Source: Patescibacteria group bacterium | GTDB taxonomy: Bacteria; Patescibacteriota; Patescibacteriia; S139-126; S139-133 | NCBI GenBank assembly: GCA_049604715.1 | Contig: JBMYTV010000012.1 | Coordinates: 1 to 27,053, forward strand | Direction: 5' to 3' | Length of the DNA: 27,053 nucleotides | Part shown: positions 3,698 to 26,622 of the stretch, one piece after another | Numbering within the stretch: the stretch's first letter is position 1 | Layout of the letters: each line of letters starts with the position of its first letter | Made by a program: the position numbers and the translations under genes | The notes under the pieces: model-generated | Told to the model about the DNA's origin: nothing | What the model saw: only the letters and a program-made list of their open reading frames with translations | Databases searched by the model: none

Positions 3698-4558
3698 TTA
3701 GTTTTTATTAAGAACTTGCTGGAAAATAGCCTTGGCTTGATCATAATCAAGCTTTTCCAAAACATCATCTTCAGGTACCCACTCAGCATTTTGAATCTCA
3801 GGATCTTTGGTGATTGAAAATTCTTGCTTTTCAACTTCACCTAGAAAAAGATGGATGGTTTTTGGTGTTGGTTTTTTGTTTGGTTCGTTAACTACTACAT
3901 CGATTTCACCTATTTTGTCATACAATGTGATGTTTTCAAGGCCAATTTCTTCATTGATTTCTCGCATAGCTGCATCGCGAAGGTTCTCGTCTCCAGAAAT
4001 TTTACCTTTAGGAAATGTCCATCTCCCATGTGCATCAAGTACGACCGCGTACATTTTCTTACCTTCCTCTTCGTAAAAAATAATACCACCAGCTGAAGTC
4101 TGTTGCTCGCCCATAGGGTTTTCCATGTCTTGCTTTTCTCCATCAGCTTGCATTTGTTTATAAATAGAGCCCAGAACGCCGTTAATAAACTTACCAGATG
4201 CATCGCCACCAAATGTTTTTGCTAGCTCAATAGCTTCATTAATAGCTACTTTTGGAGGAATTGTCTCAGAGAATTTTAATTCAAAAATGCCGATACGCAG
4301 TACATTGCGATCGACAAGTGTGATTTGCTCCAATGGCCACTCAGGAGCATACTTGGTAATCAAGTCATTAATAGCATCAATGTTTTTTCGTACACCTTCG
4401 AGGATATCTCGAGAAAAGTGCTTATCATCAAAATCAGGAGCAAACTCATCGAAGTTGTGTTCGAGCATAGACAACAAACCATCATCTGGCATTTGGTAAA
4501 AATCCCATTCAAATAAGGTTTGTAATGCTAATGTACGAGAAAGATGTCTATTTGCCAT
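3698..4558 (-). CDS. nusB: NusB antitermination factor fused to a C-terminal NUDIX hydrolase domain
   Basis: Residues about 1-135 carry NusB motifs (RHLSRTLALQTLFEWDF, DRNVLRIGIFEL, INEAIELAKTFGG..KFINGVLG). Residues about 150-286 carry a Nudix box (GKISGDENLRDAAMREINEEIGL). It is one uninterrupted 286-aa ORF. Confidence 0.75.
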   Translation of the reverse strand: MANRHLSRTLALQTLFEWDFYQMPDDGLLSMLEHNFDEFAPDFDDKHFSRDILEGVRKNIDAINDLITKYAPEWPLEQITLVDRNVLRIGIFELKFSETIPPKVAINEAIELAKTFGGDASGKFINGVLGSIYKQMQADGEKQDMENPMGEQQTSAGGIIFYEEEGKKMYAVVLDAHGRWTFPKGKISGDENLRDAAMREINEEIGLENITLYDKIGEIDVVVNEPNKKPTPKTIHLFLGEVEKQEFSITKDPEIQNAEWVPEDDVLEKLDYDQAKAIFQQVLNKN

Positions 4559-16289: not shown

Positions 16290-16390
16290 ATCTTATCAAG
16301 AGTGAGCTGAGGGAATCGGCCCTGCGACGCTCCGGCAACTTGCCTATATGGTAAAGTGCTTCTTCCGACCCATTCTTGGGGAAGATAAGT
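16290..16390 (+). promoter_or_regulatory. SAM-I (S-box) riboswitch aptamer
   Basis: The sequence reads TCTTATCAAGAGTGAGCTGAGGGAATCGGCCCTGCGACGCTCCGGCAAC...GGGGAAGATAAG. It matches the S-box consensus (P1 CTTATC/GATAAG; AGAGNGG.GGAGGGA..GGCCC..GA.GC.CGGCAAC) directly upstream of metK. Confidence 0.7.
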
Positions 16391-16423
16391 CAGTTTATAT
16401 ACCTTCTCAGGAGGTATTTTTTT

Positions 16424-16458
16424 AACCTTTTCTTTTTCGAGAAAAGGTTTTTAATTTT
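16424..16458 (+). terminator. Riboswitch expression-platform terminator
   Basis: AACCTTTTCT-TTTTCG-AGAAAAGGTT is followed by TTTAATTTTTT, 16 nt before the metK RBS and ATG. Confidence 0.6.
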
Positions 16459-18081: not shown

Positions 18082-18429
18082 ATGTCAGAGAAAGCAAAAG
18101 ATCAGGAGTTTGTTGAATACGTCATTAAGGCGATTGTCGACAATCCAGACGCAGTATCAACTGAGCGAACAGTTGATGAAATGGGTGTTCTTTTAACACT
18201 CAAAGTTGCCCCAGAAGATATGGGTAATGTTATTGGCCGTAGTGGTCAAACCGCACGCGCAGTGCGAACATTGCTTCGTGTTGTTGGTGCAAAGAACAAT
18301 TCACGTGTTAACTTGAAGATTTATGAACCAGAAGGTTCTCGCAAGAACCATCGTTCACAATCAAGTGAAGCGCCTGCAATGGACGAAGATACACCAGATC
18401 CAACTAGTCTTGATGATTTGAACTTGTAA
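18082..18429 (+). CDS. khpA: KH-domain RNA-binding protein (KhpA/YlqC, UPF0109-like) with acidic C-terminal extension
   Basis: Has a KH GxxG motif in context (VIGRSGQTARAVRTLLRV) and the typical N-terminal part (EYVIKAIVDNPDAV...LKVAPEDMG). Confidence 0.7.
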   Translation: MSEKAKDQEFVEYVIKAIVDNPDAVSTERTVDEMGVLLTLKVAPEDMGNVIGRSGQTARAVRTLLRVVGAKNNSRVNLKIYEPEGSRKNHRSQSSEAPAMDEDTPDPTSLDDLNL

Positions 18430-18446
18430 TATCATATTTTAGACTT

Positions 18447-18475
18447 CAAAACCCCGCCAAGTGGCGGGGTTTTTG
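18447..18475. terminator. Bidirectional intrinsic terminator (CCCCGCC family)
   Basis: CAAA-ACCCCGCC-AAGT-GGCGGGGT-TTTT. It serves khpA on the plus strand and the first array gene on the minus strand. Confidence 0.7.
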
Positions 18476-18480
18476 TATTA

Positions 18481-18515
18481 GAAAACCTTCTACTATTAGC
18501 AGAAGGTTAAAGTTG
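18481..18515 (-). repeat. Hairpin-terminator repeat, copy A (AACCTTCT-N9-AGAAGGTT)
   Basis: One of three copies of a conserved GAAAACCTYCTRC-N5-GCAGAAGGT element. On the minus strand the stem is followed by TTTT, about 50 nt downstream of the 18565-18912 gene. Confidence 0.6.
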
Positions 18516-18564
18516 ACTTCATATATAGGTGACTGCGCTACAGGAAATGAAAAATTTGAAGTAC

Positions 18565-18912
18565 TCAGCTGGATGGGTTGCGTTTGTCATAGGCTATTGT
18601 GCTCATGAGCGCTCCAAAGGCTGCTGCAAGAAGCTGCACCAGAAACATCAAAAGAGCTGTAGATTCTTGGTGCTGTAGGCTATGATCGTGAACGATGTAG
18701 AGGCTGTGACCGAGGATATACATAGCACCAAGTGAAAGTAGGATATTTAACCAGTTTCGGAAGAAAATATTTACGATATCCATTACCATCACATGCAAAT
18801 TGTTGTTCAGGTCGTTCACTTCTCGAATCTTTGCTTCAGTCGCGTCCCATCTGTACGTTAGGGTAAAGTACAAAAGGAAAGAGACAATGATATACCACAC
18901 AAGTGTAGTCAT
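18565..18912 (-). CDS. Small 3-TM membrane protein, array member 1
   Basis: A 115-aa protein laid out as TM1, a polar loop of about 30 aa, then a TM2-TM3 hairpin (ALLMFLVQLLAAAFGALMSTIAY). Confidence 0.5.
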   Translation of the reverse strand: MTTLVWYIIVSFLLYFTLTYRWDATEAKIREVNDLNNNLHVMVMDIVNIFFRNWLNILLSLGAMYILGHSLYIVHDHSLQHQESTALLMFLVQLLAAAFGALMSTIAYDKRNPSS

Positions 18913-19105
18913 GATTATTCCTCACAAAATAGATTAAACAAAGAAATTAAAAAAGAACGAAATACATTAATTAAAAAAGCTTCATCTGATCTTACATAGA
19001 GTTTATAAGTTTGTCAAAGCGAACTTTACATATATACGCTTTTAAGTTAATGTAAACCACTAATTCAAGCTCTTAAACAATAAGTAAGTTCGTAAAGGGG
19101 AAGTC

Positions 19106-19738
19106 ATGTTCTTCCAGTATGATTATGTGTTGTTGGTCATTTTGTTTCTATTTATTTATTTTTTTAGGAAGCCTGGTTATATTCTTATTTACTCCAAAAG
19201 AAGAAGAACCGGTAGGGTGTTGTTTGTAAAAAAAACAGGCAAGAGCGCTCTTGTGATGGAGAAAGTAAAGAGTAGACCGGTCTTAATAGTCTTGCCTCCT
19301 GTTTTAGCAGATTTTGTTGAGCGCTTTATCAATGAGAATTATCAGTATGACTGGATGGGTGTGATTGGGGTAGCAATGACGTATGGGAGTATGCTTGATA
19401 ATTATAAGGTTTATACTTCACCAAAGCACGACCCATCAGTTTCAAAGTTTATGCGATATCCCAAAGAAGTACCAAGTACAGGAAGAAGGCCGATGGTGCT
19501 CAAGTTTCGTCTGAACACCTATAATGAAGCATATATGCTTCAGGGCGCGACAAAGCATGGGTTGGAACTTGAAGATTATATTATCTTCAATTTAAGAAGA
19601 TTCTATAGATACGTTGATATGCGGAAGACACACTACTTCTACTACAGGCATAAAGGTGAATATAAAAAGTTTGTTATCCATGGCCCGAACTCATATAGCG
19701 GCCCTCCTGTAACATTTGGAATATTCGACCCGAATTAA
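19106..19738 (+). CDS. Hypothetical protein with N-terminal TM, inside the array
   Basis: A 210-aa ORF with a GGGG RBS 5 nt upstream. The only plus-strand gene in the island. It has a possible Arc/RHH-like segment (MVLKFRLNTYNEAYMLQGATKHGLELEDYIIFNLRRF), which is a weak call. Confidence 0.45.
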   Translation: MFFQYDYVLLVILFLFIYFFRKPGYILIYSKRRRTGRVLFVKKTGKSALVMEKVKSRPVLIVLPPVLADFVERFINENYQYDWMGVIGVAMTYGSMLDNYKVYTSPKHDPSVSKFMRYPKEVPSTGRRPMVLKFRLNTYNEAYMLQGATKHGLELEDYIIFNLRRFYRYVDMRKTHYFYYRHKGEYKKFVIHGPNSYSGPPVTFGIFDPN

Positions 19739-19811
19739 AAAATTACAACCATCACTATTGTGATGGTTTTTACATTTTGAAAGTTTGCAAAGAGATATTT
19801 TTTTAAAAAAA

Positions 19812-19848
19812 TAGAAAACCTCCTGCTATTAGCAGAAGGTGAAAGTTC
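19812..19848 (-). repeat. Hairpin-terminator repeat, copy B (ACCTCCTGC-TATTA-GCAGAAGGT)
   Basis: The same family as copies A and C, with one stem mismatch. It lies 9 nt downstream of the minus-strand stop at 19849-19851 and is followed on the minus strand by TTTTCTATTTTTTT. Confidence 0.6.
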
Positions 19849-20172
19849 TTATGCGGAATTTTGTCTTTGAAAGTGTTTGATGCCAGCATATCGGCCGGTT
19901 ATAAGCGCGCCTATTATTGCTAAAGCAAAAACAATGACAATAGGATACTCTTTCACGACTGACAGGGTATAGTACACGGCCCATGTTAGTGGTACAATCC
20001 CGATCATAAAAACAGGAATGCCCCACGGGATGCAGATGGGTTTGATAATTTCCCAGGCAGTTGGTATTGATTCAGAAGTGGTTACTAGCTTGTCTTCTGA
20101 CTCTTCCCAAAGATAAGAAAGGATGCCAGATGTGGCAAGAATTGCAATACAGCAGAGGAAAAAGAGGATCAT
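19849..20172 (-). CDS. Small 3-TM membrane protein, array member 2
   Basis: A 107-aa protein with the same TM1-loop-TM2-TM3 layout. Its C-terminal TM (PIVIVFALAIIGALITGRYAG) resembles that of member 4. Confidence 0.5.
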   Translation of the reverse strand: MILFFLCCIAILATSGILSYLWEESEDKLVTTSESIPTAWEIIKPICIPWGIPVFMIGIVPLTWAVYYTLSVVKEYPIVIVFALAIIGALITGRYAGIKHFQRQNSA

Positions 20173-20528
20173 GTTAAGTCTCCTTTCGCTTTTCTGTATT
20201 TAAGCTTCTTCCACAGTATTTCCGTCACCACATGCAGGATTAGTCCGGCAGCTATGGTGATGGCAATTACCACCCACCAGCATATTTCAAGTTTTTTGGC
20301 GAAGGGCCATGATTCTATAATGATCCAGACAAACCCGATGATAACACCGAAAAGAAATACATACATGTATTTCTTTTCTAGAAAGTGTCGCCAGTAGTCT
20401 TGAAACCGAGTAGTACCATTCGGACGTTGATAAAGAAGTTCGTGTATTATAGACTCAACTTCAACGTGTCTGATAGTTAGGGCTATCACACACACGATAT
20501 ACAATACATACGCATAAAAAACATCCAT
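20169..20528 (-). CDS. Small 3-TM membrane protein, array member 3
   Basis: A 119-aa protein with the same layout. Its stop overlaps the start of member 2 (ATGA), suggesting translational coupling. Confidence 0.5.
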   Translation of the reverse strand: MDVFYAYVLYIVCVIALTIRHVEVESIIHELLYQRPNGTTRFQDYWRHFLEKKYMYVFLFGVIIGFVWIIIESWPFAKKLEICWWVVIAITIAAGLILHVVTEILWKKLKYRKAKGDLT

Positions 20529-20539
20529 TGGCAGCTCCT

Positions 20540-20923
20540 TTAAGCTTTTGTACTGATTTTGATAAAAAACACCTTACCTTTGAAATGCCTGTTACCAACC
20601 AATAAGCCGATAAAAGCACTGGCGACCGTAATGACAGTCGGGAAAGCATACATGCCCACGTCAGTTGGTACTGGCGATGACAGGAATACGATGATGCCGA
20701 TCCAAAGTCCAACAATCGCCAGAATAATTGATATCAGCGACGGGACCCAGATTTTTTTTAAAGAGATAAACTCTTTAAAAGTTTTGTACTTCTTTTCTGG
20801 CCGTTGTAATATTTTGACGTTATACGTCAATTCAGCCATGGCCAGCAGGAGAAAAACTAAGATGATGCACCAAATAACAAACATACCAAACATGGTAGAT
20901 ACCTCACAAAGAAAATTAAACAA
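20540..20923 (-). CDS. Small 3-TM membrane protein, array member 4
   Basis: A 127-aa protein with the same layout. Its C-terminal TM (PTVITVASAFIGLLVGNRHFKG) is similar to that of member 2. Confidence 0.5.
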   Translation of the reverse strand: MFNFLCEVSTMFGMFVIWCIILVFLLLAMAELTYNVKILQRPEKKYKTFKEFISLKKIWVPSLISIILAIVGLWIGIIVFLSSPVPTDVGMYAFPTVITVASAFIGLLVGNRHFKGKVFFIKISTKA

Positions 20924-20987
20924 ACATAATTATAAAGGTGCTGCCTGCGCAATTTACAACGTTTTTACTGATATGTAAAGTTTAAAT

Positions 20988-21022
20988 TATAAAACCTTCT
21001 GCAAATTGCAGAAGGTCAGTAT
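20988..21022 (-). repeat. Hairpin-terminator repeat, copy C (ACCTTCTGC-AAATT-GCAGAAGGT)
   Basis: A perfect 9-bp stem. On the minus strand it is followed by TTTT, about 20 nt downstream of the gene ending at 21041. Confidence 0.6.
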
Positions 21023-21040
21023 TGTTTTCAAGGAGTAGCA

Positions 21041-21355
21041 TTATGCTTGTTTTGATCTCTTTCTTTTCTTTCTAAAGAGACTTTTAAAATCGATTTCCTT
21101 GATGTAGGGTATAGCCCATGAGATGAATATCCCGAGTGTCACTGAGATGAGAAATAAGCCCATATGACCCATTGACTGCCACTTGGTCATCTGCGTTGGT
21201 ATGACAATAAAGTGACCAATAACAGACACAGCGAGCAATCCGTAGCTAATAAGATTATCATCTTCTTCGTGGTGCCATGCCCAGAATATCATGCCGCTTG
21301 AAGTTGCGTAACCAATGATTATAAAGATTAACCCAATATTTGTTTCCATATGCAT
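21041..21355 (-). CDS. Small 3-TM membrane protein, array member 5
   Basis: A 104-aa protein with three hydrophobic helices and a basic C-terminal tail (RKKRKRSKQA). Confidence 0.45.
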   Translation of the reverse strand: MHMETNIGLIFIIIGYATSSGMIFWAWHHEEDDNLISYGLLAVSVIGHFIVIPTQMTKWQSMGHMGLFLISVTLGIFISWAIPYIKEIDFKSLFRKKRKRSKQA

Positions 21356-21391
21356 CCTCTTGTTAAATGAGTGTATTACTAATACTTGGTG

Positions 21392-21745
21392 TTATTTTGA
21401 TACTTCGCGCCAAAGGCGTACCATCAGCGTGCTTGTAAGCCCAACAATCAAACCGGCAAGAATTTCAAGTACCGGCAGTAGTACTGCTAATAGTACAATA
21501 AACTGTGCATTGACAGGGAAGTTGACTGGCGGCGTGAAGTATAGGTAGAGCTGGTATGCGGTACACCCTAAAAAGATTACTAAGGTGATTACGAATAAGG
21601 TCTTTTTGGCGTGGAAGGCTTCAACCCAGTTTTTCTTTTTACTTAAGTACTCAGTAATATCTGGCTCATCAGTTCCACGTATACATATTTGGTATGTAAC
21701 AAATGCAACAATAACTAACTTTAATACATGCAGAAACAAAATCAT
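21392..21745 (-). CDS. Small 3-TM membrane protein, array member 6
   Basis: A 117-aa protein with the same layout, including a polar loop (CIRGTDEPDITEYLSKKKNWVEAFHAKKT). Confidence 0.5.
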   Translation of the reverse strand: MILFLHVLKLVIVAFVTYQICIRGTDEPDITEYLSKKKNWVEAFHAKKTLFVITLVIFLGCTAYQLYLYFTPPVNFPVNAQFIVLLAVLLPVLEILAGLIVGLTSTLMVRLWREVSK

Positions 21746-21855
21746 AATAACTCTCCTTTACTAAGATGGAAATGGAAGTATTATTTCAGTTTTACGTTTG
21801 GTGTGAACAATAACACCATCTGATTCATACCAGACATAGTCTGCGTGGTATTGTT

Positions 21856-22194
21856 TCAAACACAACGTAACAAAATCTCATCCTCATAATTGGGAGGAAA
21901 ACAAAGTCTAAGCTTTTGTAGTGACGCAGGTGTAAATTTAAATGAAACACGGTAAAATGTCGGACCTATTTTCTGCGAGATAACAGGCAGTGCCGACTGT
22001 TTGCCGTACTGTTCTCGTTTGAGCCATTTTTTATTTTTCCGGTAATACAGCATCCAGTTAAGCGCTGTTCTCATAATCATGCCCTTACTTTTTACTTCAT
22101 GTACATCCTGTAATTGCCTGATGAATTGAAATAAAACCACATCCAAACGAACCATAACCTGTACAGGCTGTTGTGGACTTGGTATCTTCTTCAA
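21856..22194 (-). CDS. Small basic soluble protein, possible ribbon-helix-helix regulator
   Basis: A 112-aa ORF with a TTG start. It has a beta-strand-like VQVMVRL followed by two predicted helices (DVVLFQFIRQLQDVHEV, MIMRTALNWMLYY), consistent with an RHH fold. This is a weak call. Confidence 0.35.
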   Translation of the reverse strand: MKKIPSPQQPVQVMVRLDVVLFQFIRQLQDVHEVKSKGMIMRTALNWMLYYRKNKKWLKREQYGKQSALPVISQKIGPTFYRVSFKFTPASLQKLRLCFPPNYEDEILLRCV

Positions 22195-22212
22195 GGCTAT
22201 CTCCTGTTGTTA

Positions 22213-22671
22213 TTATTCCTTCTTTTGTAATGAATTGGCGGCTTTGGTGAACAACCAAAATACAATACCAAAGAAAATAATACTACCAACAACAAAGTGT
22301 ATGTTAATAAGCATCATATTACTAGGCGTGCAAATACGTTGCCAGACATCATCTATTGTCTGCTTTTTAGCAGCTGCGGATTCGTACGAGCCCATATGCG
22401 CTAAGCAATAGATCCCACTAAGGGCTATGACCTCCCCAATGATGAGTATCAAAGAGATAGCAAAGGGTAAAAGCAGCGAAACTCGTTCGTGCGGATATAC
22501 TTTTTGTATCTCTGGTTGGAGGCCAAATAGCCACAGGAGCCAAATGAATGCGCATATTACTGATACAATAACCCACTTTTTAATAGCCTCGCTATTTTTT
22601 AATGCTAATTCTGTAATGTAGGCATACTTAATGTGATGAAGCCACTGTGAAACAAAGCTTTGCTGTCTCAT
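22213..22671 (-). CDS. Small 3-TM membrane protein, array member 7 (152 aa)
   Basis: Three TM helices with a soluble N-terminal part of about 30 aa. It is divergent from trmD. Confidence 0.45.
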   Translation of the reverse strand: MRQQSFVSQWLHHIKYAYITELALKNSEAIKKWVIVSVICAFIWLLWLFGLQPEIQKVYPHERVSLLLPFAISLILIIGEVIALSGIYCLAHMGSYESAAAKKQTIDDVWQRICTPSNMMLINIHFVVGSIIFFGIVFWLFTKAANSLQKKE

Positions 22672-22752
22672 AATACATCCTCTTTTTTAGGGTTTGAATT
22701 ATATTTGCTTTTAGGTTATTCTCAAACTGTATTTATTTGTCTAAGTGCTGTG

Positions 22753-23474: not shown

Positions 23475-23834
23475 GTGTCAAAAAAGGCATTAATAAAACT
23501 GAGAAATCAAAGACGTAAGGAGAGTAAGCACAAGAAGAAAAGAGAAGTAATGGAAGGATATGTGGGTTTGGGCGTTGCTGGAGAATTAGATAAAGGTTAT
23601 TATCAGGTGCATTATGGCACTAATCCCAAAAGGGGTTATCATGTTTGTTATTTTAATGGAGAGAGTTGGTATTTGTATAATCTTCATCCGATTATTAGGA
23701 TGGGTGAAAGAGTGCGAAAACCAAATCATATCCTCACACAGAGATTGACCGGAAGGGTTACTGCATCAAGGATATTTTATCCAACAAAAGATACTAAACC
23801 CCAAAACCCACTCAGGATGAGTTATTATAGATAA
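23475..23834 (+). CDS. Basic protein with one W/Y-rich ~50-aa repeat (uncharacterised domain)
   Basis: GTG start with a GGGGA RBS. The repeat is GYYQVHYGTNPKRGYHVCYFNGESWYLYNLHPIIRMGERVRKPNHIL. The N-terminus is K/R-rich. Confidence 0.55.
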   Translation: MSKKALIKLRNQRRKESKHKKKREVMEGYVGLGVAGELDKGYYQVHYGTNPKRGYHVCYFNGESWYLYNLHPIIRMGERVRKPNHILTQRLTGRVTASRIFYPTKDTKPQNPLRMSYYR

Positions 23835-23847
23835 ATTTTGTGAAAGA

Positions 23848-23880
23848 AAGCCCTGTCGATAATCGACAGGTTTATTATTT
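23848..23880 (+). terminator. Intrinsic terminator (CCTGTCGA-TAA-TCGACAGG + T-run), copy 1
   Basis: The hairpin is followed by TTTATTATTT. An identical stem occurs after the next paralog. Confidence 0.65.
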
Positions 23881-24006: not shown

Positions 24007-24726
24007 TTGGTTAAGAAAAAAGGGAAGTTGATTAAGCCAGGTAATGGCGGAGGCAAGAAGCAACAAAAGGAAGGCGTAAAAGTAGTCAATGATGGCTACA
24101 TGCTCACCAGGGATGCGTATCCCTTGGAGGAGGGTTTCTACCGGGTTCATTATGGGTTTGACCGAGAAAAAGGTTACTATACGTGTTTTTTTAAGAAAGA
24201 GAACAGGTGCTGGTATATGTATAGTGATCACCTTTCAATTAAATGCGGTGAAAGGGTTACAAAACCGCAACACGTTCTTCCGGGACGAATAATAGGTCGG
24301 ATAGAAAAAGATCCCAGATTTATCCCTTCTCCATATGGAGCGGCAAAGCATCCTCTTAAGAAGCTTAAGTCCGTTGTACCCGTTCACACTAATGTTAAGA
24401 AGCAGAAAAGAAAAAAGGTGAAGGTAATTTCGGATGATTTTGTTCTCACCAGAGATGCTTATGCTCTGCCGTTGGAAAAAGGATTTTACCAAGTACATTA
24501 TGGTATTGATCCTGATACGGATTATTACAGGTGCTATTATGATGGAAAATTTTCGTGGTACATGTATGGCGACCACAAATTGATCCACAAAGGTGAGCGT
24601 GTGCGAAAGCCAACCCATGTAAAGCCTGAAAAGTTGACCGGTCCTTCATTTACAAGGCAGCTTATCAACTGCCCACCCAAAAATACTTCCGTAAAGAATC
24701 CTCTTAAGAAAACTATCTTTGATTAA
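24007..24726 (+). CDS. Basic protein with two copies of the W/Y-rich ~50-aa repeat
   Basis: TTG start with an AGAGGTG RBS. The repeats are GFYRVHYGFDREKGYYTCFFKKENRCWYMYSDHLSIKCGERVTKPQHVL and GFYQVHYGIDPDTDYYRCYYDGKFSWYMYGDHKLIHKGERVRKPTHV. It is paralogous to the 23475-23834 protein. Confidence 0.6.
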   Translation: MVKKKGKLIKPGNGGGKKQQKEGVKVVNDGYMLTRDAYPLEEGFYRVHYGFDREKGYYTCFFKKENRCWYMYSDHLSIKCGERVTKPQHVLPGRIIGRIEKDPRFIPSPYGAAKHPLKKLKSVVPVHTNVKKQKRKKVKVISDDFVLTRDAYALPLEKGFYQVHYGIDPDTDYYRCYYDGKFSWYMYGDHKLIHKGERVRKPTHVKPEKLTGPSFTRQLINCPPKNTSVKNPLKKTIFD

Positions 24727-24735
24727 TTGCAAATT

Positions 24736-24768
24736 AAAACCCTGTCGATAATCGACAGGTTTTATATT
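24736..24768 (+). terminator. Intrinsic terminator (CCTGTCGA-TAA-TCGACAGG + T-run), copy 2
   Basis: The same stem as at 23852-23870, followed by TTTTATATTTATT. Confidence 0.65.
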
Positions 24769-24833: not shown

Positions 24834-24863
24834 TTGACATTTTGCTAAGAATACGGCTATAAT
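24834..24863 (+). promoter_or_regulatory. rRNA operon promoter candidate TTGACA-N18-TATAAT
   Basis: Consensus -35 and -10 hexamers lie about 290 nt upstream of the 16S 5' end. Confidence 0.5.

Positions 24864-25152: not shown

Positions 25153-26622
<1,470 letters not shown>

Follow-up and report, generated by a model that had tools for sequence, protein, structure and literature searches.

Three near-identical hairpins spaced over 2.5 kb of a 27,053-nt window (the whole stretch of DNA analyzed) from an uncultured Patescibacteria genome are in our assessment likely to be unidirectional Rho-independent terminators of adjacent minus-strand transcription units, alike in sequence because the units themselves arose by local duplication. 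Most probably these are ordinary signals for stopping transcription, multiplied by local copying, and do not represent a mobile or genome-wide repeat. The underlying motif, ACCTYCTRC-N5-GCAGAAGGT, is present at 18485-18507 (copy A), 19818-19840 (copy B) and 20994-21016 (copy C), in agreement with the three positions given by a first-pass annotation of this DNA; a search tolerating up to three mismatches detects no further match in the window, and none of 100 dinucleotide-preserving shuffles of the window contains any. The same annotation had described copy C as a perfect palindrome and copy B as carrying a single stem mismatch, both of which hold, but had left unnamed the one mismatch that copy A likewise carries on the plus-strand reading, even though the Y/R consensus covers both A and B. 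It was also correct on the flanks, with AAAACC ahead of all three copies and AAAGTT behind A and B. An independent assembly of run SRR27204692 (same strain) includes two contigs, L001 and L061, that match the window without a difference over copies A, B and C, so that the repeat is not an assembly artefact; together with L060, these contigs are 100% identical to the window, add an 8.9-kb extension and are useless for covariation.

Each hairpin closes a predicted minus-strand unit, and none is found in the intergenic gaps within units. Unit 1 (21041-22671, minus strand) comprises g22213, g21856, g21392 and g21041, of which the g21856 product is not a membrane protein; it features promoter-like sites at 22725-22698 and 21807-21780, holds no terminator-like hairpin internally, and ends with copy C (minus strand, ACCTTCTGCAAATTGCAGAAGGT) 24 nt past the g21041 stop codon. 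Directly behind the tail of copy C lies the promoter-like site of unit 2 (TTTACA-17-TAAATT, 20951-20979, minus strand). The latter unit (19849-20923, minus strand) encodes three small orphan proteins with three transmembrane segments (3-TM) each, in the order g20540 (20540-20896/20923), g20169 (20169-20528) and g19849 (19849-20172), and is followed by copy B (minus strand, ACCTCCTGCTATTAGCAGAAGGT) just 8 nt past the g19849 stop. Unit 4 consists of the single gene g18565 (18565-18912, minus strand), a 115-aa predicted membrane protein matched by no Pfam, PHROG or PADLOC entry, with a promoter-like site upstream (TTGACA-17-TAAGAT, 18989-19017, minus strand) and copy A (minus strand, ACCTTCTACTATTAGCAGAAGGT) 57 nt past its stop. 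The proposal that every copy sits downstream of a minus-strand gene, with a T-run after the stem, is thereby borne out. At each of the two convergent junctions a further hairpin, with its T-run on the plus strand, belongs to the plus-strand gene: the GC-rich khpA terminator at 18443-18470 (AAAACCCCGCCAAGTGGCGGGGTTTTT), which adjoins copy A and has an orthologous counterpart past khpA in relatives, and the g19106p terminator at 19747-19768, which faces copy B across the junction. Searches of Pfam, PHROGs and PADLOC assigned no family to any array protein, an exact-protein look-up of g21041 and g18565 retrieved no identical proteins on record, phage and plasmid records yielded no megablast match to the region, and Rfam returned sub-threshold matches only, all of them to generic terminator parts of sRNA or leader models at the khpA terminator.

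Folding lends direct support to the terminator assignment. On the minus strand, the RNA of each copy forms a 9-11 bp hairpin followed by UUUU, and none of 200 shuffles folds as well. Copy A, transcribed as ACCUUCUGC-UAAUA-GUAGAAGGU and then UUUUCUA, folds at -13.6 kcal/mol (z -4.0); copy B, with the tail UUUUCUAUUUUUUU, at -14.3 kcal/mol (z -3.6); and copy C, with the tail UUUUAUAAUUU, at -16.0 kcal/mol (z -5.0). Free energies of -13.6 to -16 kcal/mol are within the usual range of intrinsic terminators. The signal is also directional: copies A and B fold less stably as plus-strand RNA (-9.4 and -10.8), the U-run follows the stem on the minus strand only, and both stem substitutions read as G·U on the minus strand versus A·C on the plus strand, with pairing in 27/27 cells of the former versus 25/27 of the latter. 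The informative stem substitutions number just two, for which a joint preference for the minus strand has a chance expectation of about 1 in 4, and no double compensatory stem change occurs among the three copies. A consensus terminator scan independently flags copies B and C, both of which pass the 5 T in 8 criterion; copy A has five U among the first eight bases of its tail, yet is absent from the scan's list. A stable stem-loop on the transcribed strand, with a stem of about 5-14 bp and a loop of 3-8 nt, an adjoining U-rich tract and a unit-end position past the stop codon, the features by which Rho-independent terminators are recognized, are thus found together at the copies, and the intrinsic-terminator reading put forward in the first-pass annotation gains support from the minus-strand folding, the U-tails, the unit-end positions and the strand-specific G·U substitutions alike.

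In comparison with canonical intrinsic terminators, the array hairpins share the 9-11 bp stem, the 3-5 nt loop, the U-run directly after it and the position at the unit end past the stop, but differ in that three neighbors have nearly the same sequence, in that their stems are less G+C-rich than the genome's other terminators (5 G-C pairs in 9, versus 6-8 G-C pairs in the stronger housekeeping ones), and in that their U-tracts are broken after four U. We infer that transcription does terminate at these hairpins: during minus-strand transcription the nascent RNA would fold into the 9-11 bp hairpin directly ahead of the U-run, and the two together would destabilize the elongation complex and lead to transcript release. 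A stop at copy C would keep transcription out of the next unit's promoter, and stops at copies A and B would keep it out of the convergent genes khpA and g19106p, respectively.

The 9-N5-9 palindrome could in principle act at the DNA level instead, as an operator for a dimeric regulator encoded within the array (g21856 or g19106p) that would coregulate the units. Copy C does precede the unit 2 promoter-like site at close range, and in the low-confidence structural model of g21856 the first segment is beta-alpha-alpha, which would be consistent with a ribbon-helix-helix fold. That model is nevertheless unreliable (pLDDT 47, too poor for a fold search) and comes with no Pfam match, no promoter is expected at copies A and B, which sit between the ends of converging genes, leaving C as the only copy that adjoins a promoter-like site, and what the substitutions maintain is RNA pairing on one strand, not the symmetry of half-sites, all of which makes an operator role highly unlikely. 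A Shine-Dalgarno-sequestering hairpin was considered as well and rejected: the arm GCAGGAGGU is Shine-Dalgarno-like, but the minus strand offers no suitably spaced start codon after it, and the plus strand just open frames of about 9 to 30 codons, the longest of them antisense to g18565.

The terminator reading leaves the shared sequence itself to be accounted for. Copies A and B are identical at 33 of 36 nt (blocks 18479-18514 and 19812-19847), including the loop and 13 flanking bases, and copy C shares with them just the 23-nt hairpin plus UUUU, so that homology around the hairpins is limited to 23-36 nt. The resemblance extends to the other end of the units: the 5' leader and RBS region of g18565 in unit 4 (18917-18955, minus strand) is homologous to that of g20540 in unit 2 (20899-20937, minus strand), with 31/38 nt identical (z 6.1, 0/200 shuffles). 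In addition, g19849 can be aligned with g20540 over almost the full length of both (z 4.9, 0/300), and the two, to judge by their sequences, are probably old paralogs. Among the three ORFs that directly precede the hairpins no significant similarity was found, and the duplication history therefore rests on short noncoding matches. The duplication of gene-plus-terminator cassettes suggested in the first-pass annotation is accordingly retained in modified form: units 2 and 4 share both terminator and leader, and two array genes are probable paralogs, which together make an old duplication of whole units probable, whereas the hairpin-adjacent genes have no detectable similarity and the homology around the hairpins spans just 23-36 nt. 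We infer that whole units were probably duplicated long ago, with just their regulatory ends still recognizable. Units composed of a promoter and leader, one or more ORFs and a terminator would have arisen through local duplication; the constrained regulatory ends would have stayed recognizable, and the weakly constrained ORFs for small membrane proteins would have diverged to or past the detection limit.

A second gene pair in the window offers a parallel. The genes g23475 and g24007 are clear paralogs (E 1e-26), and an identical 23-nt hairpin block stands behind both of them, with the adjoining coding DNA about 55-60% identical. This pair shows the same pattern as the array, with the hairpin kept and the coding DNA diverged. 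The g24007 protein is itself an orphan.

Conserved ends around variable genes could alternatively reflect diversification by cassette exchange, with leader and terminator serving as recombination handles, or as ends homogenized by gene conversion, between which variable ORF cassettes are swapped. The noncoding ends are indeed better conserved (33/36 and 31/38 nt) than the ORFs, which show no significant similarity, and the array, which consists of orphans, is lineage-specific. However, the window encodes no recombinase and the array lacks the hallmarks of attC; its homologous arms, imperfect in sequence, extend over just 36-38 nt, and two assemblies of the sample yield no variant. A simpler explanation, as for g23475 and g24007, is that regulatory motifs are under plain purifying selection while small membrane proteins evolve fast. 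We hold exchange of this kind to be quite unlikely, and give a similarly low rating to its more specific form, in which the khpA-trmD array of an episymbiotic Patescibacterium would have its orphan membrane-protein ORFs swapped or rapidly replaced between conserved frames, with the 36-38 nt ends as handles and the hairpin doubling as a terminator. Integron attC sites span 57-141 bp, carry R''/L''-L'/R' boxes and a GTTRRRY core, lie beside intI and accompany cassettes that are usually promoterless. The array resembles them in having an imperfect palindrome behind each unit of a one-directional gene series, but the attC assignment was rejected: homology spans 23-36 nt, the flanks GTTAAAG and GTTCTTA depart from the core, no integrase is encoded in the window, and the units have promoter-like sites.

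The other origin raised in the first-pass annotation, a REP-like element, bears on whether copies exist elsewhere. REP/BIME sequences, REPINs and MITEs are short, extragenic, sequence-conserved palindromes, some of which lie at gene ends and can affect termination or mRNA stability (PMC3184786, PMC3337134). The array hairpins are likewise short, extragenic and palindromic, conserved in sequence beyond structure, and their homology ends abruptly at the element edges, as would be expected of a dispersed REP-like or MITE-like palindrome, or of a REPIN remnant, that had landed at gene ends. Yet all three copies lie within the same 2.5 kb, and a search of 35.9 kb of the same genome found none outside the array. 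A covariance model built from the three copies recovered no diverged members: its next-best matches are other gene-end terminators, at no more than 21.5 bits versus about 59, and nothing scored above these generic terminators. No copies were found in relatives, and the genome, metagenome and viral collections contain no contig with several copies. Dispersal in many copies linked to RAYT or IS transposases, as in REP and REPIN families, and the terminal inverted repeats and target-site duplications typical of MITEs were not found for the array hairpins in the DNA searched; no RAYT or other transposase is among the window's proteins, and no target-site duplications or duplicated flanks were seen. 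Finally, a mobile palindrome of 23-36 nt leaves the shared unit leaders unexplained. Neither the search of 35.9 kb of this genome nor the comparison with related ones therefore supports a REP-like element, which we regard as quite unlikely. Uptake sequences (DUS/USS) were rejected on related grounds: in Neisseriaceae and Pasteurellaceae, where their inverted repeats act as terminators, they number hundreds to thousands per genome, or roughly one per kb, whereas the array 9-mers GCAGAAGGT and ACCTTCTGC occur in the three hairpins only within the 35.9 kb, with neither over-representation nor single copies outside the hairpins.

Beyond this genome, a motif scan of 185,579 species genomes, a set that does not include the source genome, returned 35 loci with one copy each, all in unrelated members of Firmicutes and Bacteroidota. 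A metagenome scan returned 19 such loci, which apart from 16S matches had no relation to the window, and neither hairpin had a match among viral contigs. In all, the same stem recurs singly in about 45 unrelated bacterial sequences, mostly flanked by a T-tract: 33 of the 45 have a T-rich tail on the side that the search pattern left unfixed, a count on which we relied alone for these loci since tabulating their ORF context from stop-to-stop frames proved too noisy. Such recurrence could suggest independent convergence on a favored terminator sequence, without common descent. At 35 loci in 185,579 species genomes, however, extremely few terminators have this stem, independent events cannot account for three copies in 2.5 kb, and copies A and B also share their loop and 13 flanking bases; convergence as the source of the three copies is hence exceedingly improbable.

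Read as locally duplicated terminators, the hairpins in themselves matter little; they provide an operon map of an orphan gene array. They also offer a small example, seen twice in the window, of duplicated units keeping a terminator (and leader) while the coding parts diverge, and a caution that gene-end hairpins conserved in sequence need not be mobile elements. More curious is the lineage-specific orphan array that lies between khpA and trmD; should its proteins take part in host or cell-surface interactions, following up the locus could be worthwhile. In relatives the khpA-trmD site holds either no gene or one gene for a small membrane protein; in this Patescibacteria genome the two genes, normally adjacent, are separated by 4.2 kb of orphan 3-TM proteins, a lineage-specific expansion.

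Allowing up to three mismatches, the pattern ACCTTCTGC-N5-GCAGAAGGT is found at exactly three places in the window, with one mismatch each in copy A (18485-18507) and copy B (19818-19840) and none in copy C (20994-21016), while none of 100 dinucleotide-preserving shuffles yields a match. AAAACC precedes all three copies and AAAGTT follows A and B, so that the conserved hairpins and flanks described in the first-pass annotation are borne out. In an independent assembly of run SRR27204692, contig L001 spans copy A and contig L061 spans copies B and C; both agree with the window without a mismatch, and the three repeats are therefore not assembly artefacts. The two Logan contigs break inside the array of small ORFs, in a T-rich stretch within the plus-strand ORF g19106p (window 19163-19189, 27-nt overlap), where thin read coverage, trouble with a homopolymer or variation within the population could be the cause.

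Read on the minus strand, the copies fold into stems of 10-11 bp, loop-closing pairs included, with energies of -13.6, -14.3 and -16.0 kcal/mol for A, B and C (z -4.0, -3.6 and -5.0), matched by 0 of 200 shuffles. The plus-strand folds of A and B are weaker (-9.4 and -10.8 kcal/mol) because the two substitutions within the family are retained as G·U pairs in the minus-strand RNA (27 of 27 cells paired) and become A·C mismatches on the plus strand (25 of 27). As evidence this strand bias is weak, since it comprises two events that would both favour one given strand by chance about once in four, and there is no double compensatory change among the three copies. The T-run that had been claimed after the stem is present as a U-run on the minus strand only (UUUUCUA, UUUUCUAUUUUUUU and UUUUAUAAUUU for A, B and C; plus-strand tails UAAAGUUG, GAAAGUUC and CAGUAUUG).

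The hairpins lie 57, 8 and 24 nt past the stop codons of g18565 (copy A), g19849 (copy B) and g21041 (copy C), in keeping with their reported position downstream of minus-strand array genes. A promoter scan places promoter-like sites on the minus strand at 22725-22698, 21807-21780, 20979-20951 and 19017-18989 which, together with very short or overlapping intergenic gaps, predict three minus-strand units: g22213-g21856-g21392-g21041, ending with copy C; g20540-g20169-g19849, ending with copy B; and g18565 alone, ending with copy A. Each predicted unit thus ends in one hairpin and none contains a copy internally. Copies A and B sit in convergent junctions, facing plus-strand terminators with T-runs on their own strand 3' of khpA (18443-18470) and of g19106p (19747-19768), and the tail of copy C directly adjoins the next unit's promoter-like site. 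Since A and B are located between convergent gene ends, a role of the hairpin as an operator site is unlikely; moreover, no family match exists for the candidate regulator, g21856 (21856-22194, minus strand), and the model predicted for its structure is too poor to use (pLDDT 47). The best explanation of the copies is that they serve these adjacent units as ordinary, unidirectional intrinsic terminators and are related via local unit duplication; the first reading of them as intrinsic terminators is supported. Terminator-like sites are two- to three-fold enriched over shuffles throughout this genome segment (20 vs. 6.6, 32 vs. 14.5 and 16 vs. 7.0), so this genome appears to favour intrinsic termination in general.

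Contig L060, which overlaps the window without a mismatch, adds a further 8,855 nt to it, and in the combined 35.9 kb neither the motif nor its 9-mer half-sites occur outside the three hairpins. The three copies were used to build a covariance model, which, run unfiltered on 99 kb (window, L060 and three relatives), scores them at ~59 bits and everything else at 21.5 bits or less, the next-best matches being ordinary terminators of khpA (in relative L056 and the window), g19106p, the SAM riboswitch and rpsP. None of the relatives carries the motif. The dispersed, REP-like element initially considered is thus not seen in the 35.9 kb, and local duplication, its stated alternative, is favoured. 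Inverted repeats of the DUS/USS type are the best-known sequence-specific terminators (PMC2397512), but they require genome-wide over-representation, and such a reading was rejected for a motif limited, in the 35.9 kb, to three hairpins. Sites resembling attC were likewise ruled out by length, the lack of a GTTRRRY core and of an integrase, and the presence of unit promoters.

A wider motif scan returned 35 loci in 185,579 species genomes, 19 in metagenomes and 0 in the viral collection, every one of them with a single site and, 16S apart, unrelated to the window. About 45 of these sequences are distinct and come from unrelated Firmicutes and Bacteroidota; 33 of the 45 also carry a T-rich tail on the side unfixed by the search pattern, so this stem turns up now and then as a hairpin of the terminator type. 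Such single recurrence would allow the three copies to have converged independently, but at 35 loci in 185,579 genomes it is far too rare to account for three copies within 2.5 kb.

When 220 nt around each copy are aligned, homology is confined to a block of ~35 nt, in which 33 of 36 nt are the same in A and B (z 18) and copy C has only the 23-nt hairpin and UUUU in common with them. A match also exists between the 5' leader and ribosome-binding-site blocks of the A and B units (18917-18955 vs. 20899-20937, 31/38, z 6.1, 0 of 200 shuffles), and a weaker one between the promoter regions of units 1 and 4, those ending in C and A (z 4.0). Among themselves the array proteins are not similar by BLAST (E > 0.01); g19849 and g20540 form the sole outlier pair, aligning nearly end to end (z 4.9, 0/300, against a null preserving the hydrophobicity pattern). 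The proposed gene-plus-terminator duplication is hence supported at the terminators, the leaders and one protein pair, but not by extended homology or by the remaining proteins. Judged from these alignments, the simplest account of the conserved hairpin sequence would be that whole units were duplicated locally long ago; promoter, leader and terminator may then have stayed constrained while the small membrane-protein ORFs, held mainly for hydrophobicity, diverged. Cassette exchange, with the conserved ends as recombination handles, is an unlikely possibility that has no positive support: no recombinase was found, both arms are short as well as imperfect, and no variants appear in the two assemblies.

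An internal precedent for terminators outlasting genes, as in the array, is provided by g23475 (23475-23834) and g24007 (24007-24726), clear plus-strand paralogs (E 1e-26). An identical 23-nt block, CCCTGTCGATAATCGACAGGTTT (23/23; 23849-23871 and 24738-24760), lies 3' of both and holds a second hairpin pair (23852-23870 and 24741-24759), whereas the adjacent 3' coding DNA is only ~55-60% identical. The domain found once in g23475, with the motif 'G(F/Y)YxVHYG...ERV(R/T)KP', is present as two internal repeats in g24007; Pfam has no match for the family, and in the 5.8-billion-cluster collection g24007 is an orphan that matches only itself.

More unusual than the hairpins is the orphan membrane-protein array that splits khpA (18082-18429, plus) from trmD (from ~22753, plus). 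The ~4.2 kb between them (18430-22752) hold eight ORFs on the minus strand and one on the plus strand; seven minus-strand products are predicted membrane proteins of 104-152 aa, in most of which a simple hydropathy scan picks out three hydrophobic segments. Two array ORFs are non-membrane, g21856 being the only such minus-strand product; its model starts beta-alpha-alpha, which would be compatible, at low confidence, with a ribbon-helix-helix DNA-binding fold. The array proteins have no Pfam, PHROG or PADLOC match, and g19849 and g20540 are orphans in the 5.8-billion-cluster collection and in an exhaustive 1.84-billion-representative search, respectively. In the closest relatives reached via TrmD (62-76% identity), trmD directly follows khpA (L056) or a single 90-aa, 3-TM minus-strand gene lies between them (L058 and L059); the site being empty or single-gene there, the array represents an expansion specific to this lineage.

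The window, from a Patescibacteria MAG, also carries the housekeeping genes smc, rnc, gyrA, an S1-domain gene, 16S rRNA and tRNA-Ile, and one ORF (3698-4558, minus) joining an N-terminal NusB to a C-terminal NUDIX hydrolase domain, which may be an unusual fusion. A SAM-I riboswitch (16290-16391, plus; 65 bits, above the gathering score) is followed by terminator-like hairpins (16399-16417 and 16424-16449) and a short metK (345 aa), and the 16S rRNA gene (25154-26622) has a perfect consensus promoter (TTGACA-18-TATAAT, 12/12; 24834-24863, plus) ~290 nt upstream. The genes rpsP, khpA and trmD are usually found in one operon; here rpsP lies left of the window (L060 12719-16896 region), ~18 kb from the other two. 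The khpA terminator and that of rpsP (L060 13210-13238) have a common stem, CCCCGCC/GGCGGGG, in an A-tract/T-tract frame, which may be a relic of former linkage or merely a common GC-rich stem. The neighbours of rpsP are a gene for a T2SSE-type ATPase and, in tandem, four small T4SS_pilin paralogs (121-159 aa), which form another small-gene array.
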